From assembly GCA_026770705.1 (NCBI GenBank), contig JANJGN010000056.1:1302001-1366000 (forward strand): 64,000 nucleotides of DNA. Direction: 5' to 3'. The notes under the pieces are model-generated. The model ran no database searches and was not told where the DNA came from. It saw only the letters and a list, made by a program, of their open reading frames with translations. The position numbers were made by a program, and so were the translations under genes. This document shows, piece by piece, positions 7,015 through 64,000 of this stretch. This stretch comes from Isurus oxyrinchus. Taxonomy: Eukaryota. Position 1 is the first letter of the stretch. Every line of letters starts with the position of its first letter.

Positions 7015-7437
7015 GAATGTGATTTTGTGCTGGTTAGAATACATTCATACAGGGTGTTGATAATTGAGTGGATTTAGTGCTGGGTAACATATATTCAGCA
7101 GAGTGTTTGATAAGTGAGTGGGCTTACTGCTGGTTAAAATCAATTGAGCAGAGTATCGATAAGTGAATGGGATTTAGAACTGATTAAAATACATTCAACA
7201 GAGTGTTGATAAGTGAATGGGATTTAGAGCTGTTTAAAATACATTCAACAGAGTGTTGATAAGTGAGTAGATTTAGTGCTGCTGAAAATACATTCAGCAG
7301 GTCATTGAGAAGTGAATGAGATTTAGTGCTGTTTAAAATACATTCAGCAGAGTGTTGATAAGTGTGTACTGGTTAAGATACATTCAGCAGATTGGTGCTA
7401 AGTGAATGGGATTTTTTACTGTTTAAAATACATTCAG
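7015..7437. repeat. ~50-bp minisatellite, about 8.5 units
   Basis: Unit cagagtgttgataagtgaatgggatttagagctgtttaaaatacattca(a/g) at 7050, 7099, 7149, 7199, 7249, 7298, 7348 and 7388. Confidence 0.9.
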
Positions 7438-8989
7438 CTGCCATTTCCATGTCCCCCATTCTTAATGCGCAAATCTCATCCACGATGTGACTAACATTTA
7501 GTTCCTCTTTTGTTTCATGTGTGTTTGAAGGCTCTTTAAATGTATGTTGCCACATTTCTTGCCAGGCATGCGCTAATGTCTCCAACCGAATTTTCTTTGG
7601 GAACTGTTTTGCATGTGCCTACATTTTCTCAGTCTTCTGGCCGAATGCTAATCTTGGCTTAATTGTGCACTGTTCCTTTCCAGGTATAAAACGCTTGCCT
7701 TTCTGAGTTAGCCACGGGGACATCACCCTTAATTTAGTTGATGACCATTCCTAGAATAAACTACTTTTTAATTATGGCGTGGGTGAATGGCCCCCACTCT
7801 CTCAGACTTTGCCTATACTCTCAAAGATTTGCAAACCGTTTAATCCTTAAAACCAACTTACTAATTTTCCACACACATCTCAATAATTTAGTCACCATCT
7901 CACTGAGCGTCATCAACAATCTTTGATATAAAGTTCCACGTTGCTGCATCAGGGTTTTATGTGCATTTTAGTGAACTGGCAGCTGAGGCTGCAGAACAGG
8001 TCCTGGGTTGACACAATCACTCATGTTTGTTGGATTGGAGGACACCACCTTTTTCTGAATGTCTGCCTCCCACAGTTTAATTTCTTTCATATCCTGGCCA
8101 TTAGGGCGCTCCCAATTCCATTCAACCCTAACATGTACCTCCTTTATCAGGGAAGAATCGATATGAATTAGCAGCCGATCACGGCACAAGAATACATAAA
8201 GGTCCATTTATTTTTAATGCTTGAAATGATTTAAAGAAAAGGACGGCAACCACCCTCGGATATTCCTCATCGGGAAACTAGAGTCGATTTGAAAGGACAG
8301 ACAGTCACCATTCCCTGCATCATGACAGAGAAAACCGTTCATATCTGATTTTACAGGGATAATCCACGGCTGCCCTCTCCAGAAATCCTCACAAAAGTCA
8401 CCACTGGGACATTAAGGATGACCAGAAAGCGGCACAGAGGACGGCAGCAGCGCGAAAATAATGCGCCCCCTCCCCTCCCCGGTCACTAAAAGCTGGTTAG
8501 CCTGTGATGGTCATTACCGAAGGCCAGTGAAACGCTACCAGGAGACATCATATATGGGATTAGCTCACTTGATGTTCAAAAGGGGGCAGACTGTATTTGA
8601 ATGTAACAGTGATAAATAGTCTGATTTAGTGTCGTTATTCTCCTAACAATGTTATTGTGAAAAAGGGTCCTAGACTGACTGAGAGCAGGGACCGAGTCCA
8701 ACTCGACTGACAGCAAACCCTCAGCTCGAATGTTGCTTTCCAATTTTACCCGATGGCTCTCTGATCGAGCAGAATGATATGTTCAACGTCCCAATAGCAG
8801 CACGGGGTCACGGTTTCGTTTACCTTTCACTGCAGTGAGTCTAGTGACTTTTCCTAAGGCACTTTCAGACAGGTTACCCTTCTGACATTGCACGTTTACT
8901 CGCTGATTACCTTAACTGGGTGATGGATATTTTAAGAAACTATTGTTATGTGGAATACTGTAACTCTATTGCATTCCAATGCAGCATTG

Positions 8990-10989: not shown

Positions 10990-11867
10990 TTAAGCGAAAG
11001 GATATTTCAACATTTTCCACAACTGCTCCCTGAACCTCGTCTGTGTCACAGCATAAATCCAAGTGTTTGTGCAGCAACTAAGGAGCTGCAGCATGAAGCC
11101 CAATTCCAGAACAAAAAAATCTAGATACAGGGAATTATAGCCTAAAGCAGACATCCGGATCCATATGGAAAAAAACATTAGCATTCCCCATAAAACGATG
11201 AAATTGGTTGAAATATAAAAGAGTAACATGATCGATTTCTTTCGATTCTCCACCGCTGGGTCTTTGGGGCTTTGCCCACTCCTGTGAGGCCGGAGTCTCA
11301 TGCGGGCCCTGCTGGTCACTAAAATATACTCTATGGTCAAAATATTGATGAGCAGGATCAGCACAAATGGGACACACGGTGTTAGAATGTGATGGGTGAA
11401 CTCGATTGTTGTCCAGACAGGATTGAACAGAACCTCCTTTCTGTAACCACAAAACCAGGGGAAGTTTACCATCCAGTACTGACCTGTGAACAAAAAATAC
11501 CAGAAAATGTTCTTTGAACAGCTCAGTGCAATGACGGTTCCCAGAATCACAGCTGCCGTTTTCTCACTGCAATATTTAGTTTTCAGCTTCGGGCAACAAA
11601 TGGCCACAAATCGATCCAAGGTAAAAGTGACAGTGAACCACACAGAACAGTCAGTGGCTGCATAAAGCAGGACAGCATGGATATTACACACTGAGATTGA
11701 TCGCAGGAAAGAAAAATACTTATCAAACACAATTGGAATATGCCTCAGTATCAGGTCCAGGATAATGACCAGTAGATCAGCGACTGCCATGGCCTCCAGG
11801 TAACGGGTAACACAATTGGAGAGGCCACACCTCCGGCGCCTGAGTATCACAATCGTGACCAGGTTCA
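10990..11867 (-). CDS. Class A 7TM GPCR, GPR139/GPR142-like family, exon 2 (unit A, ORF intact)
   Basis: Open frame with TM2 MAVADL, Cys at the top of TM3 (VCNIH), DRF motif (FTLDRFVAICCP), TM5 PCVPF and TM7 LSCCTNTWIY. Acceptor cctttccttgcag|TG at 11868/11867; stop TAA at 10992-10990. Confidence 0.92.
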
Positions 11868-12989
11868 CTGCAAGGAAAGGTAATGAATAATAAAACGCTA
11901 TATCACTCTGGTACCAAGGTTGCCAGTAAAATTGAGATGCGATGGAGATGTGTTACAGCAGCCTCCAGTGTAATGAAATGAATGGTCCAGAAACAAGGTA
12001 TAAAAAATGTCTGTGATATAGTGGAAGGCAGGATACATTGAATGGTTAAAATAAGGAGGTGGGAATAAGGTGGAGATGGGAGTTTGCGGGAGAGCGGGAA
12101 TATTTGCGAGACAAAGGAGGAAAGGAGTAATCGGGGATAATAGGTGCGCATAGCGGTGATAACAGCGCATGGAGTGGCGGGCGAGCGTGCCCATTACGTG
12201 TGGTACCCATGGGTGATGGTGGAACTCATGAGTGAGAGGGGAGACGTGTTTGAGTGAGAGCAGCCAGAGGTGATGATTGCGTTCAGGCAAATAAGTGAAA
12301 TGGGGTAATTTTATATTTTGCTCAACATATCTCCTGACAGGAAGGCTCTGCAGTTATGTGATGGAATGTTTCCTCGTCCAAGGATGTTATTTTAGGAATT
12401 TCGAAGAGAGCTTTCTTGCGAATTATCATTTCAAATTAAAGGATAAATGACCATTTCTTACAAAATACGAAATGCAAGTTATAATGATCATGTACACGAC
12501 AAACACTCATACACCCTCACACAAAAATAATAATTTGCAGAAATGCTGCACATACTTAAATTATTACGAGTGTAGAACAGGAACAGCTCATTCCTTAATG
12601 TGCTTAATGTGCTGGTTGTAAACATTGCAGGACTGAGGTGTTCATTCCTCAGCGATTGAAGACAAATGGAGTTTTTAAATATCTGGCTTTTAGTCTACAA
12701 TGTGGTGGAGCCTCTGTGTTGAAGATATGTACCAACATGTACAGCCTATCAGCCTCTTTTAATGCCTGAAATCTTCAAAAATGTCTCTTAAAAATATTAT
12801 TTTGAAGTGTTTCTATTATGAGCAAGAGTCTCCCTGTCCTTCGATCTTGGTGTTGGATTTCCATTCTCCAAACACTAAATTTTACGTTGTGTACAACTTC
12901 AGAAAATGAAGTTATGTTCAAACTGGTTTCTTAGTGGCACAGCTAGACAACCTGTCAAAGGCGAAAGCATCCAGAATATATCTTACCAC

Positions 12990-14144: not shown

Positions 14145-14282
14145 GATTAAAAAAAACAACTGCAGATGCTGGAAATCCAAAAAGTTCTGTCGAAGGGTCA
14201 TGAGGACTCGAAATGTCAACTCTTTTCTTCTCCGCCGATGCTACCAGAACTGCTGAGTTTTTCCAGGTAATTCTGCTTTTGT
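14145..14282. mobile_element. Short Penelope-like terminal fragment with internal inversion, flanked by a 14-bp direct repeat
   Basis: tttgaaataacagt at 14131-14144 and 14283-14296. The first ~38 bp match the PLE end at 34832 directly; the rest matches it in reverse complement. Confidence 0.85.
14183..14221 (+). ncRNA. Minimal type I hammerhead ribozyme motif (PLE-associated)
   Basis: AGTT-CTGTCGA-A-GGGTC-atgag-GACTC-GAAA-TG-TC-AACT: stem I AGTT/AACT, stem II GGGTC/GACTC, GUC site. Stem III has a C-to-T change. Confidence 0.65.
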
Positions 14283-15077
14283 TTTGAAATAACAGTAGTC
14301 CGTCAAATTCCGTTCAGCTGACAGTCAGATGTCTGGCCCGTTTCAATTAAACTGGAAAGGGTGCCTCGTGTTTTTTAACAAATATTTAGCTGAGAGTGAT
14401 TAACACAGCTTTTTGGTGGACGGGTACAGCCAGTGTTTCAAAGGCATGCATCAAACATGCTGAAAACCCCCGGACAACACGGGACACCATGTGTGAGTTT
14501 CTGGACATGGGATTGATTGGAGAAGCGAGATGAAATTGTGATCAAATCACCCGATTGGGAATTTTGAAATTGACGGACTGAAAGACCTGGCAGCAATCTT
14601 GGCCCTTGAGCACAGGGATAATGGTGGAATGAGATTTGGCATGGGCAAGTTTACAAAGATTAGAGTTTTGTATGGGGTATGTTTTAAGAACGTTTGTAGC
14701 AGCAATTGTCTGGCCAGATTAACATTTTAATAGCCGAGTCTGGCTTGGACAAATGCACAGCTGAGGGATCATTCGGGTGATGTGTTGATGCAGCGAGGAT
14801 AGTGGGTGAGACTAAATAGCTGGTAGAAGACAGGCTTAAGGATAGAAAAGGTGAGGGCTCACAAATCAGCTCAGGGCAAAATGGAGCATGGGAGTCGAAG
14901 ACACTATGGTTCAGGCTTAGATAGTAGTGCGGTAGGCGGGTGGAGCGACTGGATATGGAACGATCATTAAAACGGGAACAGTAGCAAATGACTTCCATCT
15001 TCCTGAAATGTAAGAGACAGTAACAGTAATACAGTCAATCTGGTTTAAGGAACAGATTGTTGCATATAGGTTCTTAC

Positions 15078-24299: not shown

Positions 24300-25178
24300 T
24301 AATATGTTGAAATAATTGGGGTGAAGAGATGTTGCAGCATATTCTTAACTGCTCCGTGAACTTAGCCTGCTCTCTCTGTAAATCCCAGTGTTTGTGCAAC
24401 AACCCAGGCACTGCAGCATTAAGCCTAATTCCTGAACAAAAGCATAGAGATACATAGACTTATAGCACAAATTTCACATCAGTCTCCAAATAGAAGAAAC
24501 AATTGATATTGAACATAACAGGAAGAAATTGGCTGAGATAACAGACAGAAAATTCATAGATTTCCTTCTACTCACCATCTATGGATCGCCTTCTGTGAGC
24601 CTGGGATCCCCTGTGTTCTCTGCTTTACATTAAAATCTGCTTTACCATGAAAACATTGAGCAGCAGAATCAGGGTAAATGGAAAGCACGATGTTAGAATA
24701 TGTTGGAGGAACTCAATTGCTACCCAGAACAGAGATTCGTGAATATCCCATGTGAAATCCATGAAACCAGGGGGCGTTCATCAGCCGATATTCAACTGTT
24801 ATCATAATATACGAGAAAATGTTATTTGAACAGCTCAGCACAATCAATGTTCCCAGAAGCACAGTGGCTATTTTCTCACTGCAATATTCAGTTTTCAGCT
24901 TCAGGGAACAACGGGCCACAGATCCCTCAAAGGTGAAAGTGACGGTGAAACAGACAGGACAGTCTGTGGCTGCATAAAGCAAGATGGTGTGGATATTACA
25001 CACGTGGATGGAGTTCCAGAAGTAAAACTGTTCCTTGAACAAGAATGGAATGTGCCTTATTATCACATCAGGGATAACGACCATTCGTCAGCCACAGCCA
25101 TGGCCACCAGGTACTGAGTTACACATTTGGACAGACCACATCTGTTGCTCCTGAGGATCACAATCATGACAAAGTTCG
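24300..25178 (-). pseudogene. Degraded paralogous GPR139/142-like GPCR, exon 2 (unit A)
   Basis: Acceptor gcag|CG at 25179/25178, then NFVMIVILRSNRCGLSKCVTQYLVAMAVAD and a frameshift, then IIRHIP...VCNIHTILLYAATDC...FTFEGSVARC (DRF motif lost). Further frameshifts follow; TM7/helix 8 remnants near 24320-24440. Confidence 0.9.
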
Positions 25179-32427: not shown

Positions 32428-33105
32428 TAAAATCAAAAAACTGTGGAAGGTGAAAATCCAAAAAGAAGACAGAAATACCTGGAAAAACTCAGCAGGTCTG
32501 GCAGCATTGGTGGAGAAGAACAAATTTGACGTTTCAAGTCGTCATGACCCTTCAACAGTACTGAGTAAAATTAGGAGAGGGGTGAAATATAAGCTGGTTT
32601 AATGTTGGGGCGTGGGCACGGAACTGGGTGGGGGTGGGGGAGAGATGTGCGTGCAGGGTGTGGCTGTAGAGACAAGCAAGCAGTAATAGAAGCTGATAAT
32701 CAAAAGCTGTCCCAGTCAAAAGAACAAAGAGGTGTTGAAGGTGGTGACATTATCTAAAATAATGTGCTAATTAAGAATGGATGGCAGGATGCACAAGGTA
32801 CAGCTATAGTGGAGGTGGGATGAAATAAGACTAAGAGGACATAAAAGGTATAGATTTACATATAATGGAAATAGGTAGGAAAAGAAAAATCTATATAAAT
32901 TATTGGAAAAAAATGGATGGCGAAGAAACAGAACGGTGTTGGGGATGGAGGAGGGAGTTCAAGATCTAAAGTTGTTGAATTCAGTATTCAGTCTGAAAGG
33001 CTGTAAAGTGTCTAGTTGGAAGATGAGGTGTTGTTCCTGCAGTTTGCGTTGAGCTTCACTGGAACAATGCAGAAGGCCAAGGACAGACATGTGGGCAAGA
33101 GAGCA
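32428..33105 (-). mobile_element. Older 5'-truncated Penelope-like element (end of GIY-YIG domain + 3' region with decayed hammerhead at 32524-32562)
   Basis: Homologous to 34832-35505 and shared with unit C, so it predates that duplication. Confidence 0.85.
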
Positions 33106-34269: not shown

Positions 34270-34493
34270 GAATGTGATTTGGTGCTGGTTAGAATACAGT
34301 CATACAGGGTGTTGATAAGTGAGTGGATTTAGTGCTGGTGAAAATACATTCAGCAGATCATTGATAAGTGAATGAGAATTAGGGCTGTTTAAAATACATT
34401 CCGCAGAGTGTTGATAAGTGTGTACTGGTGAAGATACATTCAGCAGATTGGTGCTAAGTGAATGGGATTTTTCACTGTTTAAAATACATTCAG
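34270..34493. repeat. ~50-bp minisatellite, about 4.5 units (unit B paralog)
   Basis: Same unit as 7015-7437, with fewer copies. Confidence 0.9.
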
Positions 34494-34926
34494 CTGCCAT
34501 TTCCATGTCCCCCATGCTTAATGCCCAAATCTCATCCACGATGTGACTAACATTTAGTTCCTCTTTTGTTTCATGTGTGTTTGAAGGCACTTTTAATGTA
34601 TGTTGCCACATTTCTTTCCAGGCATGTGCTAATGTCTCCAACTGAATTGTCTTTGGGAACTGTTTTGCATGTGCCCACATTTTATCAGTCTTCTTGCCTA
34701 ATGCTAATCTTGGCTTCATTGTGCACCGTTTCTTTCCAGCTATAAAACGCGTGCCTTTCTGAGTTAGCCATGGGGACATCACCGTTAATTTAGTTGATGA
34801 CCATTCCTAGAATAAACTACTTTTTAATTATAAAAACAAAAAACTGCGGATGCTGGAAATCCAAAACAAAAACAGAATTACCTGGAAAAACTCAGCAGGT
34901 CTGGCAGCATCGGCGGAGAAGAAAAG

Positions 34927-34965
34927 AGTTGACGTTTCGAGTCCTCATGACCCTTCGACAGAACT
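34927..34965 (-). ncRNA. Minimal type I hammerhead ribozyme motif in the PLE 3' terminal region
   Basis: Minus strand AGTT-CTGTCGA-A-GGGTC-atgag-GACTC-GAAA-CG-TC-AACT, on the same strand as and downstream of the endonuclease ORF. Palindromic ACGT stem III. Confidence 0.75.
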
Positions 34966-35358
34966 TGATTTCGGGTCCGAGAAAGAGTTGAAATTTAAGC
35001 TGGTTTAAGGTGTGTGTGTGGGGGGCGGAGAGATAGAGAGAGAGGGGGGGGGGGGTGTGGTTGTAGGGACAAACAAGCAGTGATAGAAGCAGATCATCAA
35101 AAGATGTCAGCGACAATGGTACTAAAGAACACATAGGTGTTAAAGTTAAAGTTGGTGATATTATCTAAACGAATGTGCTAATTAAGAATGGATGGTAGGG
35201 CACTCAAGGTACAGCTCTAGTGGGGGTGGAGGGAGCATAAAGATTTTAAAATATTTAAAAATAATGGAAATAGGTGGGAAAAGAAAAATCTATATAATTT
35301 ATTGGGGAAACAAAGGGGGGGAAACAGAAAGGGGGTGGGGATGGGGGAGGGGGGGAGC

Positions 35359-35688
35359 TCACGACCTAAAGTTGTTGAATTCAATATTCAGTCCGGAAGG
35401 CTGTAAGGTGCCTAGTCGGAAGATGACGTGTTGTTCCTCCAGTTTGCGTTGGGCTTCACTGGAACAATGCAGCAAGCCAAGGACAGACATGTGGGCAAGA
35501 GAGCAGGGTGGAGTGTTAAAATGGCAAGCGACAGGGAGGTTTGGGTCATTCTTGCGGACAGACCGCAGGTGTTCTGCAAAGCGGTCGCCCAGTTTACGTT
35601 TGGTCTCTCCAATGTAGAGGAGACCACATTGGGAGCAACGAATGCAGTAGACTAAGTTGGGGGAAATGCAAGTGAAATGCTGCTTCAC
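35359..35688 (-). CDS. GIY-YIG endonuclease domain of the Penelope-like element (5'-truncated, no RT)
   Basis: FTC-x-S-x-NLVYCIRCSQCGLLYIGETKRKLGDRFAEH...PVACHFN...RKLEEQHVI..LGTLQPSGLN: VY...YIG core, conserved R, E and N, CCHH pattern; uninterrupted. Confidence 0.9.
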   Translation of the reverse strand: MKQHFTCISPNLVYCIRCSQCGLLYIGETKRKLGDRFAEHLRSVRKNDPNLPVACHFNTPPCSLAHMSVLGLLHCSSEAQRKLEEQHVIFRLGTLQPSGLNIEFNNFRS

Positions 35689-38600
35689 TTGAAATTATGG
35701 CGTGTGTGAATGGCCGCCACTCTCTCAGACTTTGCCTATACTCTCAAAGATTTGCAAACCGTTTAATCCTTAAAACCAACTTACCAATTTTCCACACACA
35801 TCTCAATAATTTAGTCACCATCTCACTGAGCGTCATCAACAATCTTTGATATAAAGTTCCATGTTGCATCAGGGTTTTATGTGCATTTTAGTGAACTGGC
35901 AGCTGAGGCTGCTGAACAGATACTGGGTTGACACATTCACCCATGTTTGTTCGAATGGAGGGCACCACCTTTTTCTGAATGTCTGCCTCCCACATTTTAA
36001 TTTCTTTCAAATCCCGGCCAATAGGGCGCTCCCAATTCCATTCAACCCTCACATGTACCTCCTTTATCAGGGAAGAATCGATATGAATTAGCAGCCGATC
36101 ACGGCACAAGAATACATAAAGGTCCATTTATTTTTAATCCTTGAAATGATTTAAAGAAAAGGACGGCCACCACCCTCGGATATTCCTCATCGGGAGACTA
36201 GAGTCGATTTGAAAGGACAGACAGTCACCATTCCCTGCATCACGACAGAGGGAAACCGTTCCAAATCTAATTTTACCGGATAATCCACGGCTGCCTTCTC
36301 CAGAAATCCTCACAAAAGTCACCACTGGGACATTAAGGATGACCAGAAAGCGGCACAGAGGACGGCAGCAGCGCGAAAATAAAGCGCCCCCTCCCCTCCC
36401 CGGTCACTAAAAGCTGGTTAGCCTGTGATGGTCATTATCGAAGGCCAGTGAAACGGTGCCGGGAGACATCATATATTAGATTAGCTCACTTGATGTTCAA
36501 AAGGGGGCAGCCTGTATTTGAATGTAACAGTGACAAATAGTCTGATTTAGAGTCGTTATTCTCCTGACAATGTTATTGTGAAAAAGGGTCCCAGACTGAC
36601 TGAGAGCAGGGACCGAGTCCAACGCGCCTGACAGCAAACCCTCAGCTCGAATGTTGCTTTCCAATTTTACCCGATGGCTCTCTGATCGAGCAGAATGATA
36701 TGTTCAACGTCCCAATAGCAGCCCGGGTCAGGGTTTAATTTACTTTTCACTGCAATGAGTCTAGTGACTTCTCCTAAGGCACTTCCAGACAGGTTACCCT
36801 TCTGACATTGCACGTTTCCTGGCAGACTACCTTAAGTGGGTGATGAATCTTTTGACAAACTATTGTTATGTGGAATACAGTAACTCTATTGCATTCCAAG
36901 CAGCACTGACACATTTCTGCACTGATGGATTCCCAGTACTGAATCGTTCAGCGATATCTGGGTTTCAGTATTGAGGAGTTGCTGCACCGCCAGAGAGTCA
37001 GTACTGAGAGAGCAGGGCACCGTCAGAAGTATCAATGCTGGAGCAGAACTGAATTGCCGGATGGTCAGTACAGGTCAAGTGCTGTGTTGGCGAAGGATCA
37101 GTACTGAAAGTTTGCTGCAAATTTGAAGAGAGGGACAGGGTGAGACAAGTGCAGAGAGAGAGAGTGAAAGACAGAGAATTTGAGAAAAAAACAAAAATAT
37201 AGATAGAGATAACAGGAAGGCGACAGGAAGAGAGAGGTTCAGAGAAAAAGGCGGACAGCACTGATGGAGTGCTGCACTATCGGTGGGTCAGTAAGAAATA
37301 ATGCTGGTCTGTCAAATTTCAAAACGGAGGGGGTGCTGCAATATTTCTGGGTCAGCGCTGAGGGATCATTTCTGTTTATTTGTCCCTCCATCTCTCCCTC
37401 TCTCTCTCTTCCTCTCATCTTCCTGTTATCTCTCATTATGTTTATGTTTCTTTCTCAACATCCGTCTGTCTGTCTCTCTCTCATTCTTTGTCCTTCTCTC
37501 AACCAATCCCTCTCTTTCCTCCTTTTCACGTCCCGTCCCCTGTGACTCAATGTCTCCCTCTCTCCCTCTATTATTGTCCATCTCTACCTTTCTCACTGTT
37601 GTTCTCTTCCAGCCTTTAGTTCTCTTCTTGACTGTCTTTCTGTCCCTCTCCATCCCAGTATGTTCAACTCTCACTATGCCTCCAACTCTCTGCCTATCAG
37701 CCTCTTTCTCTCCCCCTCTCACACTCTTTCTATCTCTTTTTCAACCTCTCTTTGTCTTTCTCTGTCTGTTAGGCAACCTGCCTCTCTCTCTCTCACTCTC
37801 TATATCAATCTGCATCTCTTTTAGGGAGATCGAGGTCCAGTTCTGCCATCTCGGCCAACACACACACCCCTAATCAACTGCAACGCCGCCCACTTTCTGC
37901 AGCTGAATTGACGCCTACTTGCTTTATAAACACGAGCATCCAGTGGGAGCTGGCGTGCTGCCCACGCACTGATTTCTACTGATATCTCACTTTCACTTTG
38001 TTATCTTACTTGCGTTGTTGGTTACCTTAAATCTACGCTGTGACTGCATCTCCTCTGAAAGGACTGCACCACGTTCCACTCTGACATTCCATTTCAGCTT
38101 CCAATCACGTGTTGGAAGGAGGATGCATGTCCAATCACTGAGAAGCAGTGGCGATTTTGGAAGTCGGCGTCAGTGGCTTAGTTCTCTGTTCAATCAATGC
38201 GAGAGTGAAGGATAATGGCCATGTCTGGTGGGCAATGGAAGTGTGGAACTGGCTTGAGATGGGTTTCCTGCCCTTCCTGTGTGAGGGATGGGGATGATGG
38301 GCTTTGCATTCGGCCAATGGGATGCGAGGAGTTGGTCAGTGTGTGAACATTCAGGGCCTCCCCTCGCCCCCGCACACCCCCCCCCCCCCCCACCACCACC
38401 ACCCCACCCCCATCACTGTAAATAAGAGAAAATGCTTTAATTCCAGAACATCATGGTTTCTTTGCTCCCGCAGTGAGAGAAATTTTCCTCCTTTGAAACT
38501 GAGCAATGAACTGATAAAATATTGGAAGCGCTGAGTCATTATGTTCCATTGATAAAGACACCTTGAACGCACTGGACACCCCCATCCTACCCCCACTCCC

Positions 38601-38877: not shown

Positions 38878-39755
38878 TTAAGTGAAAGGATATTTCAACA
38901 TTTTCCACAACTGCTCCCTGAACCTAGTTTGTGTCACAGCATAAATCCAAGTGTTTGTGCAGCAACTAAGGAGCTGCAGCATGAAGCCCAATTCCAGAAC
39001 AAAAAAATCTAGATACAGGGAATTATAGCCTAAATCATACATCCGGATCCATATCGAAAAAAACATTAGCATTCCCCATAAAATGATGAAATTGGCTGAA
39101 ATATAAAAGAGTAACATGATCGATTTTTTTCGATTGTCCACCTCTGGGTCTTCGGGGCTTTGCCCACTCCTGTGAGGCCGGAGTCTCATGCGGGCCCTGC
39201 TGGTCACTAAAATATACTCGACAGTAAAAATATTGATGAGCAGGATCAGCACAAATGGGGCACACGGTGTTAGAATGTGATGGGTGAACTCGATTGTTGT
39301 CCAGACAGGATTGAACAGAACCTCCTTTCTGTAACCACAAAACCAGGGGAGGTTTACCATCCAGTACTGACCTGTGAGCAAAAAATACCAGAAAATGTTC
39401 TTTGAACAGCTCAGTGCAATGACGGTTCCCAGAATCACAGCTGCCGTTTTCTCCCTGCAATATTTTGATTTCAGCTTCGGGCAACAAATGGCCACAAATC
39501 GATCCAAGGTAAAAGTGACAGTGAACCACACAGAACAGTCAGTGGCTGCATAAAGCAGGACAGCATGGATATTTCACACTGGGATTGATTGCAGGAAAAG
39601 AAAATACTTATCAAACACAATTGGAATATGCCTCAGTATCAGGTCCAGGATAATGACCAGTAGATCAGCGACTGCCATGGCCACCAGGTAACGGGTAATA
39701 CAATTGGAGAGGCCACACCTCCGGCGCCTGAGTATCACAATCGTGACCAGGTTCA
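38878..39755 (-). pseudogene. GPCR exon 2, unit B, with a single in-frame nonsense codon
   Basis: Same length as unit A exon 2 and same acceptor. TGT(Cys) to TGA at 39576-39574 (one A-to-T change on + at 39574); the frame is open on either side. Confidence 0.88.
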
Positions 39756-42036: not shown

Positions 42037-42175
42037 GATAAAAACAAAACGACTGCAGATGCTGGAAATCCAAAAAGTTCTGTCGAAGGGTCATGAGGAC
42101 TTGAAATGTCAACTCTTTTCTTCTCCGCCGATGCTGCCAGACCTGCTGAGTTTTTCCAGGTAATTCTGTTTTTGT
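42037..42175. mobile_element. Short inverted Penelope-like fragment, paralog of 14145-14282 (decayed hammerhead at 42076-42114, +)
   Basis: Same structure and same flanking tttgaaataacagt repeats (42023-42036, 42176-42189). Confidence 0.85.
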
Positions 42176-43166: not shown

Positions 43167-43372
43167 TATTCTCAGGTTCTGATGTTTTCTCTCCCCCTCT
43201 CAGGAGTCGTTGATCCTTGCGACTGCTCAATGCGACTGCCCCCCTGACATTAGGGGACAGCACTTTGAAATGAGCCCCGTATAAATAGCACTGTGAAACC
43301 CTCCTGTGACACAATTAGGATCCGGGGAGATTGAAGTTAATTACAGGGACTGAACAAACCGTTTCAGTTAAC

Positions 43373-43611
43373 AAAAACAGAATTACCTGGAAAAACTCAG
43401 CAGGTCTGGCAGCATCGGCGGAGAAGAAAAGAGTTGACGTTACGAGTCTTCATGACCCTTCGACAGAACTTTGGTTCTGTCGAAGGGTCATGAAGACTCG
43501 AAACGTCAACTCTTTTCTTCTCCGCCGATGCTGCCAGACCTGCTGAGTTTTTCCAGGTAATTCTGTTTTTGTTTTGGATTTCCAGCATCCGCAGTTTCCT
43601 TTGTTTTATCT
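43373..43611. mobile_element. Young palindromic Penelope-like terminal-repeat insertion, present in unit B and absent from unit A
   Basis: 14-bp direct repeat ccgtttcagttaac at 43359-43372 and 43612-43625. ~100-bp inverted arms (43370-43469 / 43474-43573) around tttg. Empty site in unit A at ~15467-15485. Confidence 0.92.
43474..43510 (+). ncRNA. Minimal hammerhead ribozyme motif (right arm of the palindrome)
   Basis: GTT-CTGTCGA-A-GGGTC-atgaa-GACTC-GAAA-CG-TC-AAC. The mirror copy on - (43433-43469) has GAAA changed to GTAA. Confidence 0.7.
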
Positions 43612-43999
43612 CCGTTTCAGTTAACGCCTTGCATTCCAACAATTTTTGTCTCACAACATAGTAGGACACTTACTTGGCGTGGATCGGATTTATGTGGGTC
43701 GCTAAGGGATGGAAGGCTGCGAATAGAGGTTTGACTGACCATGACATGTAAAGGCACCTGGGAGTGATATCCGAGGACAGGAAGGTTTTATGTGTTCCAC
43801 GCTGTTTATAAAAGCAGAGTTCCAAAGCAGAATGGAACCTGGATTGATGACCTATTTTTAAAAAATCATTTATTTTGGGAGCGTGGGTTCCTTACTGAAA
43901 GAGGTTCACAGGAGCCTGATCTGACTTTGCAAGATTCACAAAAAAAATGTAATTAATCATGATCATATTACACCAGGCAACCAAACGCTTGGTAAGTTT

Positions 44000-52359: not shown

Positions 52360-53229
52360 TATGTTGAAATAATTGGGGTGAAGAGATGTTGCAGCATATT
52401 CTTAAATGCTCCATGAACTTAGCCTGCTCTCTCTGTAAATCCCAGTGTTTGTGCAGCACCCAGGAGCTGCAGCATGAAGCCTAATTCCTGAACAAAAGCA
52501 TAGAGATACATAGACTTATAGCACAAATTCCACATCAGTCTCCAAATAGAAGAAACAATTGACATTGAACATAACAGGAAGAAATTGGCTGAGACATCAG
52601 ACAGAAAATTCATAGATTTCCTTCTACTCACCATCTATGGATCGCCGGGATTATCCCACTTCTGTGAGCCTGCAATCCCCTGTGTTCTCTGCTTTACATT
52701 AAAATCTGCTTTACCATGAAAACATTGAGCAGCAGAATCAGGGTAAATGGAAAGCACGATGTTAGAATATGTTGGAGGAACTCAATTGCTACCCAGAACA
52801 GAGATTCGTGGATATCCCATGTGAAATCCCTGAAACCAGGGGGCGTTCATCAGCCGATATTCAACTGTTATCATAATATACGAGAAAATGTTATTTGAAC
52901 AGCTCAGCACAATCAATGTTCCCAGAAGCACAGTGGCTATTTTCTCACTGCAATATTCAGTTTTCAGCTTCAGGGAACAACGGGCCACAAATCCCTCAAA
53001 GGTCAAAGTGACGGTGAAACAGACAGGACAGTCTGTGGCTGCATAAAGCAAGACGGTGTGGATATTACACACGTGGATGGAGTTCCAGAAGTAAAACTGT
53101 TCCTTAAACAAGAATGGAATGTGCCTTATTATCACATCAGGGATAACGACCATTCGTCAGCCACAGCCATGGCCACCAGGTACTGACCACATCTGTTGCT
53201 CCTGAGGATCACAATCATGACAAAGTTCG
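52360..53229 (-). pseudogene. Degraded paralogous GPCR exon 2 (unit B)
   Basis: Same frameshift after AVAD as unit A, plus an 18-bp deletion near 53186. ORF pieces 52782-53153 and 52419-52634 (SANFFLL...QELGFMLQLL). Confidence 0.9.
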
Positions 53230-60378: not shown

Positions 60379-61055
60379 TAAAATCAATAAACTGTGGAAG
60401 GTGAAAATCCAAAAAGAAGACAGAAATACCTGGAAAAACTCAGCAGGTCTGGCAGCATTGGTGGAGAAGAACAAATTTGACGTTTCAAGTCGTCATGATC
60501 CTTCAACAGTACTGAGTAAAATTAGGAGAGGGGTGAAATATAAGCTGGTTTAATGTTGGGGCGTGGGCACGGTACTGGGTGGGGATGGGGGAGAGATGTG
60601 CGTGCAGGGTGTGGCTGTAGAGACAAGCAAGCAGTAATAGATGCTGATAATCAAAAGCTGTCCCAGTCAAAAGAACAAAGAGGTGTTGAAGGTGGTGACA
60701 TTACCTAAAATAATGTGCTAAGTAAGAATGGATGGTAGGATGCACAAGGTACATATCTAGTGGAGGTGGGATGAAATAAGACTAACAGGGCGTAAAAGGT
60801 ATAGATTTACAAATAATGGAAATAGGTAGAAAAAGAAAAATCTATATAAATTATTGGAAAAAATGGAGGGGGAAGACACAGAACGGGGGTGGGGATGGAG
60901 GAGGGAGTTCAAGATCTAAAGTTGTTGAATTCAGTATTCAGTCTGAAAGGCTGTAAAGTGTCTTATCGGAAGATGAGGTGCTGTTCCTGCAGTTTGCGTT
61001 GAGCTTCACTGGAACAATGCAGAAGGCCAAGGACAGACATGTGGGCAAGAGAGCA
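60379..61055 (-). mobile_element. Older Penelope-like element, unit C paralog
   Basis: Colinear with 32428-33105; decayed hammerhead at ~60475-60513. Confidence 0.85.
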
Positions 61056-62306
61056 CGCAGCATCGTAATTATTCCAGAAATTACAATCTTTGATGCCCTG
61101 CTTTTCAAGCTGCCACCTTGCTCCCTGAAGTCTTGTTGCAGGTCCCCATCACTGTTGGTACTTAGAACGCATATGAACCAATGCATTTGGCTGCTCGCCC
61201 TCCCCATTCAGAATTCCTTGGAGCAGTAAAATGACAGTCTTGACCCTGGTTCCAGAGAACTAACGCACCATCCTAGAGTCACACCTGTGGCCGCTGATAC
61301 GCCTGACTCTGACCTAAACTACTGTTGTTCCTCGCTTTCATCACCCACCAGACTTTGCAGGAATAAACCCTTTCACCATTTTCCAACACAAAGTAACAAT
61401 CCATTCTTAAAAGAGACAGAATCTGTGCCTTTCCTGACTATTTGCTTGTTTCCCTTCTTCTGACTTTGGTCACCCATTCCTTGTCTGAAGCACGACCTTA
61501 AACTGTGTGGTGACTGCATGTAAATAAAAAACACATGCTATCCATATAAGTCTCGGGCACCGGAGTGCACAACTGTGTATCCAGCTGATTGTTGAGCTCC
61601 AAAACCCGGTTCTCAAGCGCGTTGAAATGGTGCCACATTCTGCAGATATGATCATCCATGCAGCCAAGTGTACTTTATCTATGTCAGCCTCTATCTCAGA
61701 CTTGCTGATCAGCTGTAGCGACCAGGAAGCACCGAAAACAGCTTCCTGATTGGGGAAGAAGGCCCCGAGTTACCAAATGAATTCCCAGATTGGCTGTTAC
61801 GTCCATTAGCCATCAAATGTTGCTCCCTGATTGGCTGAGGTAGGTGTCGGTCACCGGGCGGATTTCTCTGATTATGTCAGGCGAATGTCAACGAAATAGC
61901 AAATAGGCTGAGTGAATCGTGGTTCACCTGGTCAAGCATTCCGATTGGATGAGGTGGCTTTCAACAGTGGGGTGCGTGAATTAATAGATTGGTTTTTGAG
62001 ATGGTGGTTTTGGGTAATGTTTGTGAGTCCCTGGGTGAAGCTCCAGCCTGACTGTGCTACCTGTCAGACAGCGGGCGGAGCTCCCGGATTGGCTGAGTCT
62101 CTGAATAATATGTAGATCCGATACTTTACGACAGTCTTTAACTGCTGTCTGATCATGGACTGACTCACCCCATAAATTAACATCTTTGTGCAGTAACTTT
62201 AATTCATCAGCATAAATTTGGCCCGTTAACATATATAGTCAGGATATCTATAGTAAAATAATTCACGAATTTTAACATATGCGAATGGAAAAGATTCCCC
62301 GACGAG

Positions 62307-62677
62307 GAATGTGATTTTGTGCTGGTTAGATACATTCATACAGGGTGTTGATAATTGAGTGGATTTAGTGCTGGGTAACATTTATTCAGCAGAGTGTTTG
62401 ATAAGTGAATGGGTTTACTGCTGGTTAAAATCAATTGAGCAGAGTATCGATAAGTGAATGGGATTTAGAGCTGGTTAAAATACATTCAACAGAGTGTTGA
62501 TAAGTGAGTAGATTTAGTGCTGGTAAAAATACATTCAGCAGATCATTGAGAAGTGAATGAGATTTAGTGCTGTTTAAAATACATTCAGCAGAGTGTTGAT
62601 AATTGTGTACTGGTTAAAATGCATTCAGCAGATTGGTGCTAAGTGAATGGCACTTTCACTGTTTAAAATACATTCAG
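62307..62677. repeat. ~50-bp minisatellite, about 7.5 units (unit C paralog)
   Basis: Same unit as 7015-7437. Confidence 0.9.
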
Positions 62678-64000
62678 CTGCCATTTCCATGTCCCCCATG
62701 CTTAATGCCCAAGTCTCATCCAGGATGTGACTAACATTTAGTTCCTCTTTTGTTTCATGTGTGATTGAAGGCTCTTTTAATGTATGTTGCCACATTTCTT
62801 GCCAGGCATGTGCTAATGTCTCCAACTGAATTTTGTTTGGAAACTGTTTTGCATGTGCCTACATTTTCTCAGCCTTCTGGCCTAATGCCAATCTTGGCTT
62901 AATTGTGCACCGTTCCTTTCCAGGTATAAAACGCGTGCCTTTCTGAGTTAGCCACGGGGACATCACCCTTAATTTAGTTGATGACCATTCCTAGAATAAA
63001 CTACTTTTTAATTATGGCGTGGGTGAATGGCTGCCACTCTCTCAGACTTTGCCTTTACTCTCAAAGATTTGCAAACCGTTTAATCATTAAAACCAATTTA
63101 CTAATTTTCCACACACATCTCAATAATTTAGTCACCATCTCACTGAGCATCATCAACAATCTTTGATATAAAGTTCCATGTTGCTGCATCAGGGTTTCAT
63201 GTGCATTTCACTGAACTGGCAGCTGAGGCTGCAGAACAGATCCTGGGTTGTCACAGTCACTCATGTTTGTTGATTTGGAGGACACCGCATTTTTCTGAAT
63301 GTCTGCCTCCCACATTTTAATTTCTTTCATATCCTGGCCATTAGGGCGCTCCCAATTCCATTCAACCCTAACATGTACCTCATTTATCAGGGAAAAATCG
63401 ATATGAATTAGCAGCCGATCACGGCACAAGAATACATATACGTCCATTTATTTTTAATGCTTGAAATGATTTAAAGAAAAGGACGGCAACCACCCTCGGA
63501 TATTCCTCATCGGGAGACTGGAGTCGATTTGAAAGGACAGACAGTCACCATTCTCTGCATCATGACAGAAGGAAACCGTTCCAAATCTGATTTTACAGGG
63601 ATAATCCACGGCTGCCCTCTCCAGAAATCCTCACAAAAGTCACCATTGGGACATTAAGGATGACCAGAAAGCGGCACAGAGGACGGCAACAGCGCGAAAA
63701 TAAAGCGCCCCCTCCCCTCCCCGGTCACTAAAAGCTGGTTAGCCTGTGATGGTCATTATCGAAGGTCAATGAAATGCTACCGGGAGACATCATATATGGG
63801 ATTAGCTCACTTGATGTTCAAAAGGGGACAGTGATAAGTAGTCTGATTTAGTGTCGTTATTCTCCTGACAATGTTATTGTGAAAAACGGTCCTTGGCTGA
63901 CTGAGAGCAGGGATCGACTCCAACCCGCCTGACATCAAACCCGCAGCTCGAATGTTGCTTTCCAATTTTACCAGATGGCTCTCTGATCGAGCAGAATGAT

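Follow-up and report, generated by a model that had tools for sequence, protein, structure and literature searches.

A minimal hammerhead motif with U at core position 6 in a recently mobile Penelope-like element lineage of Isurus oxyrinchus

Minimal type I hammerhead motifs are carried by metazoan Penelope-like elements (PLEs; Cervera and De la Pena 2014, PMC4209133). These motifs are described as weak even with A at position 6 of the core (A6), and as needing dimers (PMC4209133). Their proposed role is RNA processing or that of a passive rider (PMC4209133, PMC8557442, PMC11167929). The hammerhead of the Poseidon element PAc of Anolis carolinensis requires protein for cutting; its mutants were without effect on insertion in vitro, uncut RNA was the dominant substrate, and no RNA reads were recovered from the cut site of this cutting-competent motif (Frangieh et al. 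2024, PMC11167929). The Naiad PLEs flourish with no canonical hammerhead (Craig et al. 2021, PMC8557442), and in viral UTRs translation can be driven by the cleavage of a hammerhead (PMC13725137). As regards the core itself, single and double mutants of the CUGA turn of a type III hammerhead had low activity, strong rescue being reported only for the C3-G8 swap (PMC9901934). The substitution A6C supports weak activity in Mg2+ and is favoured by Mn2+ (Perreault et al. 2011, PMC3088659; Naghdi et al. 2020, PMC7151607). Our literature search, whose coverage of the work on PLE variants (Lunse et al., PMC5785218) was incomplete, found no natural U6 hammerhead.

The DNA analysed here is a window of 64,000 nucleotides, by which we mean the whole stretch, and its minus strand carries a motif of this kind (Table 1). 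The motif shares with the metazoan minimal hammerheads the U-rich upstream tract, the 4-bp stem I, the extra nucleotide after A9, G10.1-C11.1, the GAAA box, A15.1-U16.1, the palindromic positions 15.2-16.2 and the UH site, as well as its location in both pseudo-LTRs about 3.3 kb apart (PMC4209133). However, position 6 is U, whereas A6 is found in all 44 visible rows of the published alignment, although the descriptor used in that search demanded A6. The core variant U3-A8 described in the same work keeps a pair, whereas the A6U change comes here without a known partner change. The U6 copies thus depart from the CUGANGA core, which the older relatives of the lineage carry. By descent and layout the motif would be a variant of the PLE minimal hammerhead lacking A6; we class it as a family variant and a candidate ribozyme, not as an established one.

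Three other systems come close. PAc has, like the shark element, one ORF with reverse transcriptase (RT) and, C-terminally, a GIY-YIG endonuclease, tandem units, tails arising from internal initiation, AT-rich targets and uncut RNA as the apparent template; its hammerhead cuts with the help of protein and its ORF begins inside stem II (PMC11167929), whereas the shark element has U6 and an ORF about 170 nt after C3. The hammerhead of phage Bcep176 is likewise a natural position-6 substitution, but it has C6 and is a single phage example assayed for a low, Mn2+-favoured activity (PMC3088659, PMC7151607); the shark variant, a candidate ribozyme, has U6 in more than 100,000 copies, with A6 relatives in the same genome. 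The Naiad/Chlamys elements likewise lack a canonical hammerhead and are abundant; their endonuclease is N-terminal, and most have no motif that can be recognised (PMC8557442), in contrast to the C-terminal endonuclease and the single core change of the shark PLE.

Table 1. Positions of the motif copies and of the element features in the window
Feature	Position	Strand	Basis or remark
Young 5'-truncated PLE insertion	34832..35692	-	Endonuclease end, 3' UTR, motif-bearing pseudo-LTR and tail; 6-bp target-site duplication
GIY-YIG endonuclease frame, C-terminal part	35365..35685	-	Pfam E=4.4e-5, 24.1 bits (cut-off 22.6)
AT-rich TATA-like box	34989..34998	-	About 30 nt upstream of stem I
Minimal hammerhead motif (candidate)	34927..34965	-	Sequence and layout against the published minimal hammerhead consensus
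Stem I	34965-34962 with 34930-34927	-	Sequence
Core CTGTCGA	34961-34955, U6 at 34958	-	Sequence
Extra A	34954	-	Sequence
Stem II, 5 bp including one G-U pair	34953-34949 with 34943-34939	-	
GAA	34938-34936	-	Sequence
Palindromic ACGT	34935-34932	-	Sequence
Predicted cut	Between 34931 and 34930	-	
Tail downstream of motif	34832..34926	-	Equals the 5' leader in tandem elements
U6 motif copy	14183..14221	+	Short insertion with inverted tail arm (about 14160-14290); same insertion as 42076 copy
U6 motif copy	42076..42114	+	Segmental duplicate of 14183 copy
U6 motif copy, older subfamily, decayed	32524..32562	-	Endonuclease remnant upstream; same insertion as 60475 copy
U6 motif copy	60475..60513	-	Segmental duplicate of 32524 copy
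U6 motif copy, inverted arm of young insertion	43432..43470	-	
U6 motif copy, direct arm of 43.4 kb insertion	43473..43511	+	

All seven copies in the window have the CTGTYGA core with T at position 6, the extra A and the GUC site, as the sequence-only reading had stated. The GGGTC/GACTY stem II that it ascribed to all is present in six of the seven, the 60475 copy having GGATC, and the ACGT of stem III, ascribed to the best-preserved copies, in five, with ATGT in the 14183 and 42076 copies. The GAA box is gone in the 43432 copy, where it reads GTA. Taken alone, the CTGTYGA heptamer occurs in the window at chance level (18 seen, 17.98 expected). The seven copies do not stand for seven independent insertions but include two duplicate pairs and one inverted pair: since the window is a tandem duplication of about 28 kb and one insertion is inverted with two motif arms, they go back to four insertions. 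Those at 34.8 kb and 43.4 kb both have target-site duplications and have no counterpart at the paralogous sites (near 7775 and 63015 for the former), and they are therefore younger than the duplication. The 43.4 kb insertion (about 43370-43612) has a 13-bp target-site duplication, and its arms join at the start of stem I. An Rfam match to MIR1033 at 43433-43510 (E=3e-7, under the gathering score) corresponds to the hairpin of this inverted insertion and was rejected as a microRNA.

That the motif is borne by a PLE is supported by the GIY-YIG tail in the window and by intact relatives with RT and GIY-YIG elsewhere in the genome. Aligned with the intact element at locus L041, the 34832..35692 insertion has 815 identical positions, 35 mismatches and 21 gap positions. 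The 20 genome stretches chosen for the junction between tail and ORF yielded six intact ORFs (917-918 aa), mutually 97.4-99.5% identical. The U6 motif lies downstream of all six and also upstream of five, 169-171 nt before the start codon; the sixth is without an upstream copy. The domain scan of one of these ORFs (918 aa) revealed RVT_1 (Pfam E=8.5e-8) with the DKG and YIDD motifs, and GIY-YIG in C-terminal position at a score just below the cut-off (Pfam E=8.7e-4, 20 bits). In tandem elements, whose units repeat every 3,325-3,353 bp (loci L041 and L042), the tail leads up to where the ORF begins, about 170 nt after C3. Many genome loci show tails as well as inverted, 5'-truncated arms. Judged by this domain layout, the carrier is a canonical, EN+ PLE of the Penelope/Poseidon type. 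The AT-rich box upstream of stem I is a putative promoter element, and 1 of the 23 positions of its segment changed between subfamilies. The nearest named protein matches are from the bamboo shark Chiloscyllium punctatum (64-68% identity); a metagenome scan for outgroup elements yielded 11 loci, ten of them at 25-34% identity and one with a short 78% match.

The prevalence of U6 was evaluated over the 4.98 Gb of the genome. The full motif of 31 bases, in its young-family context, has 78,939 exact matches, of which 138 have A6, against none for the reversed control. One relaxed pattern applied genome-wide returned 109,284 U6, 13,936 A6 and 3,779 C/G6 matches, with 3, 0 and 2 matches, respectively, for the reversed controls. 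These numbers uphold the view that a recently mobile family has U6 as its consensus and that the letter is no product of decay. The further claim that U6 is family-wide stands in part: it is the norm across the genome, but the A6 matches are older subfamilies of the same PLE lineage. For this reason U6 is probably derived, and the divergence of the copies together with A6 in the 44 visible published rows indicates that the direction of change was most likely from A to U. T at position 6 was also present in contigs from runs that carry the labels of organisms B, C and D (50, 11 and 4 contigs), so that U6 is probably not confined to one species. It occurred as well in 15 contigs of a run with the label coral metagenome; this run contains 0.48 of the element's sampled words, with A6 and U6 forms, which probably reflects host contamination or a label problem.

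A graded series of subfamilies was resolved among 144 copies with intact upstream sequence, leading from A6 groups through old U6 groups to the youngest U6-C7 copies, one group having only two members. One old U6 form has 4,122 exact matches in the genome. With eight hand-picked copies per group, A6 copies diverge from their group majority by 4-13%, old U6 copies by 3-10% and young U6 copies by 0.2-2.6%. The series is not a strict line, with C17 in 7 of 22 A6 rows and a G-U stem in 5 of 22; given the same C17 count, the U17-to-C change is not supported as a compensation for U6. The endonuclease end was also used for a tree (237 columns; 67 of 85 candidate rows retained), in which 6 of 63 branches had good support; its poor resolution means that a single origin of U6 is not demonstrated. 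The core labels cluster on this tree, requiring 7 changes as compared to a shuffled mean of 14.2, and none of 200 shuffles gave a value as low. The 34927 copy falls within a supported group of 24 that contains 23 U6 copies and one A6 copy, the latter having come from the A6 search. Among the C/G6 matches, most of the first 100 listed of 3,779 read CTGCTGA (for example L122-L130). The three CTGCTGA copies in the tree were not grouped and therefore look like repeated U-to-C mutation in mid-aged subfamilies rather than like a C6 subfamily.

We then compared the majority sequences of old and young U6 subfamilies. A single change was observed at the 31 hammerhead-defining positions, from A-U to G-U in stem II, which keeps the pairing. 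Of the 6 free positions scored, 3 differ between these majorities (Fisher p=0.01), as do 59 of the 273 sites in the 3' UTR (p=0.015) and 16 of the 115 third codon positions (p=0.12), so that the neutral-like sites changed at 14-22%. In the spacer adjoining the motif, 11 of 19 positions changed. Changes within the motif are located at N7, H17 and loop II. Neighbouring non-ribozyme segments are equally conserved (1 of 23 and 2 of 44 positions changed). With moderate confidence these data suggest that the motif is under constraint, and they would fit catalysis or any other property as the one selected.

Stems I and II are paired in 95.2% of 495 cells, against 21-48% in slid controls, the structure scored having been read from the very sequences tested. 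The sequence-only reading had named missing covariation in these stems as a ground against itself. Indeed, none of the nine pairs has a compensatory change, in a set of 55 distinct copies too alike (89% mean identity) for this to say much; the covariation score was 0.106 versus 0.110 after shuffling, and the only variation was one-sided, between A-U and G-U. The palindromic ACGT is the majority in every subfamily and would permit a dimer with a loopless stem III. Monomer folds were no more stable than those of shuffled sequences (z 0.36 and 0.12), and in cofolding of two copies the double hammerhead was not the minimum-energy structure, a calculation uninformative for stems this weak. Rfam does overlook the U6 copies, with no hammerhead match in the window at E<=1; but four loci with A6 copies and one with U6 likewise gave no hammerhead match at E<=10, so the miss is not due to U6 and says nothing about it. 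In the youngest subfamilies, a stretch upstream of the motif (window 34966-34990 on the minus strand; L041:8134-8160) has stepwise become a near-copy of the 3' strand of stem II, of the GAAA box and of what follows the cut site. This stretch can form pairs with the 5' strand of stem II, in competition with the hammerhead fold.

The 5' ends of insertions bear on the RNA that was copied, since short copies would begin directly after GUC if cut RNA served as template. A junction was defined by a difference from the element at both bases before the tested site. Among 91,158 exact tails, the cut site has 298 junctions and a control site lying 8 nt upstream of it has 304; of the 30 inspected in each set, the script classed 21 and 24, respectively, as true junctions, a few of the control ones apparently misclassed. 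At the start of stem I, two adjacent positions gave 1,768 and 6,350 junctions with patterns that cover only the C7 subfamilies (30 of 30 and 22 of 30 inspected were classed as junctions). When 30 tail-selected copies were examined by eye, none began at the cut site and 3 began inside the motif; the starts of 12 lie no more than about 10 nt upstream of C3, and the other 15 copies extend further upstream. In a larger sample (224 of 364 copies), 46 copies end 1-8 nt upstream of C3, A6 and U6 alike; the junction-selected copies had been dropped from it and the rest are mostly core-selected, and hence blind to starts at the cut site. The lack of an excess at the cut site, combined with the pile-up at the start of stem I, makes the copied RNA look uncut.

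This hotspot may mark the start of transcription. A cap-derived extra G was sought at the stem I junctions and not seen: among the junctions listed, another letter precedes stem I more often than G does. Splicing is not favoured as the cause because the hotspot remains in young subfamilies that have no pyrimidine tract, and because one junction with unique flank (L001, by eye) joins target DNA directly. In older subfamilies (L252, L259, L063), a pyrimidine tract located some 30 nt upstream of the motif terminates with an AG within stem I; it resembles a 3' splice site and was lost in the young ones. In Drosophila Penelope, an intron is reported to end at helix I (PMC4209133). Genome-wide, many insertions are short inverted pairs joined at the start of stem I, a hotspot common to A6 and U6 subfamilies.

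We favour, with a probability of roughly 55%, a cleavage-impaired hammerhead that is kept in the 5' leader of a PLE copying uncut RNA. The A6U change would likely leave little or no self-cleavage. The transcript would start at stem I, about 30 nt after the AT-rich box; reverse transcription would begin in the tail and pass through the uncut motif to the 5' end of stem I. The remaining hammerhead positions would be selected as a leader fold or sequence, for protein binding, promoter function or translation, and some residual protein-assisted cutting is perhaps retained. The insertion-end counts make us lean towards dispensable cleavage over an active variant. The missing cut-site ends do not, however, imply inactivity, since the Anolis hammerhead cuts with protein and yet left no cut-site reads (PMC11167929); for the same reason the counts do not cleanly separate the impaired from the protein-assisted reading. 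Several points weigh against impairment. All catalytic positions except position 6 are kept, which would fit retained activity equally well, and the older A6 copies share the stem I hotspot with the U6 copies. By analogy only, the A6C and mutagenesis data apply to this core, as they come from other hammerhead types with no A6U rate among them. Finally, the start site at stem I is a presumed one, lacking a cap-derived G, and the promoter described for Drosophila Penelope is internal and TATA-less (PMC2377424).

Possible, though clearly second to an impaired hammerhead, is that U6 is a tolerated core variant and that a dimer chaperoned by the element protein cuts usefully in a step other than templating, such as translation or the release of tandem units. 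The single, pairing-conserving change at 31 constrained positions, as compared to 3/6 free and 59/273 UTR sites, argues for it, as do the retained palindromic ACGT, the natural, weakly active and Mn2+-rescued A6C core (PMC3088659, PMC7151607), the protein-assisted Anolis hammerhead (PMC11167929) and the viral-UTR precedent for cleavage-driven translation (PMC13725137). However, compensatory pairs are missing (0/9, with covariation at the shuffled level of 0.110 against 0.106 observed), neighbouring segments that are no ribozyme are as conserved (1/23, 2/44), the C17 of 7/22 A6 rows deprives U17-to-C of its value as a compensation, and second mutations failed to rescue CUGA-turn mutants (PMC9901934). 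It is rather doubtful that a natural U6 hammerhead still cleaves, rescued by dimerisation and by the element's own RT-endonuclease protein. If it did, a core that pairwise mutagenesis predicts to be inactive would have stayed under selection across several subfamilies and in excess of 100,000 insertions, and this ribozyme would escape any search requiring CUGANGA.

The opposite view, that the motif is dead and unconstrained and that A6U hitch-hiked in a successful master copy too recently for decay, appears unlikely. It draws on the comparison with third codon positions alone, where the conservation is not significant (p=0.06-0.12), on monomer folds that do not exceed shuffles (z 0.36, 0.12) and on the upstream stretch of the youngest subfamilies, which can pair with the stem II strand and replace the hammerhead fold. 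Yet over that interval 11/19 positions of the adjoining spacer and 22% of the 3' UTR changed, and the changes inside the motif lie at N7, H17 and loop II. A6U could also have been favoured by removing an AUG (A6-U7-G8) near the presumed 5' end of the mRNA, improving translation at the price of ribozyme activity. The A6 subfamilies nearest to the U6 ones read CTGATGA and thus contain that AUG, but later U6 subfamilies gained an AUG in loop II, a further one is kept in the tail part of the leader (AUG offsets 17 and 55) and the transcript start site is itself deduced; we consider this explanation very unlikely.

What appears to be new is the fixation of U at position 6 in more than 100,000 copies of a recently active PLE lineage, including intact elements. 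The change is a single base with a partial precedent in A6C, and its weight comes from its fixation in a huge lineage with A6 relatives in the same genome. The genome presents a graded series, from older A6 subfamilies through a single core change to further U6 subfamilies with intact elements, which offers a natural test of whether PLEs need their hammerheads. If U6 is dead, a canonical PLE expands massively in vivo without cleavage and its fold is still conserved, pointing to a second role. If U6 is active, the core of the hammerhead tolerates more change than mutagenesis suggests, and hammerhead counts based on descriptors overlook large families.

The tandem segmental duplication of about 28 kb occupies 5847-64000 of the window, with 94-96% identity, and involves the locus of a rhodopsin-family 7-transmembrane receptor. 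The open frame of this receptor lies at 10990-11952 on the minus strand (Pfam 7tm_1, E=3.4e-12), a paralogue at 38878-39573 and decayed copies near 24713-25087 and 52782-53156. Three paralogous places (7015-7440, 34270-34500 and 62300-62680) contain a degenerate tandem repeat whose period is about 50 bp.
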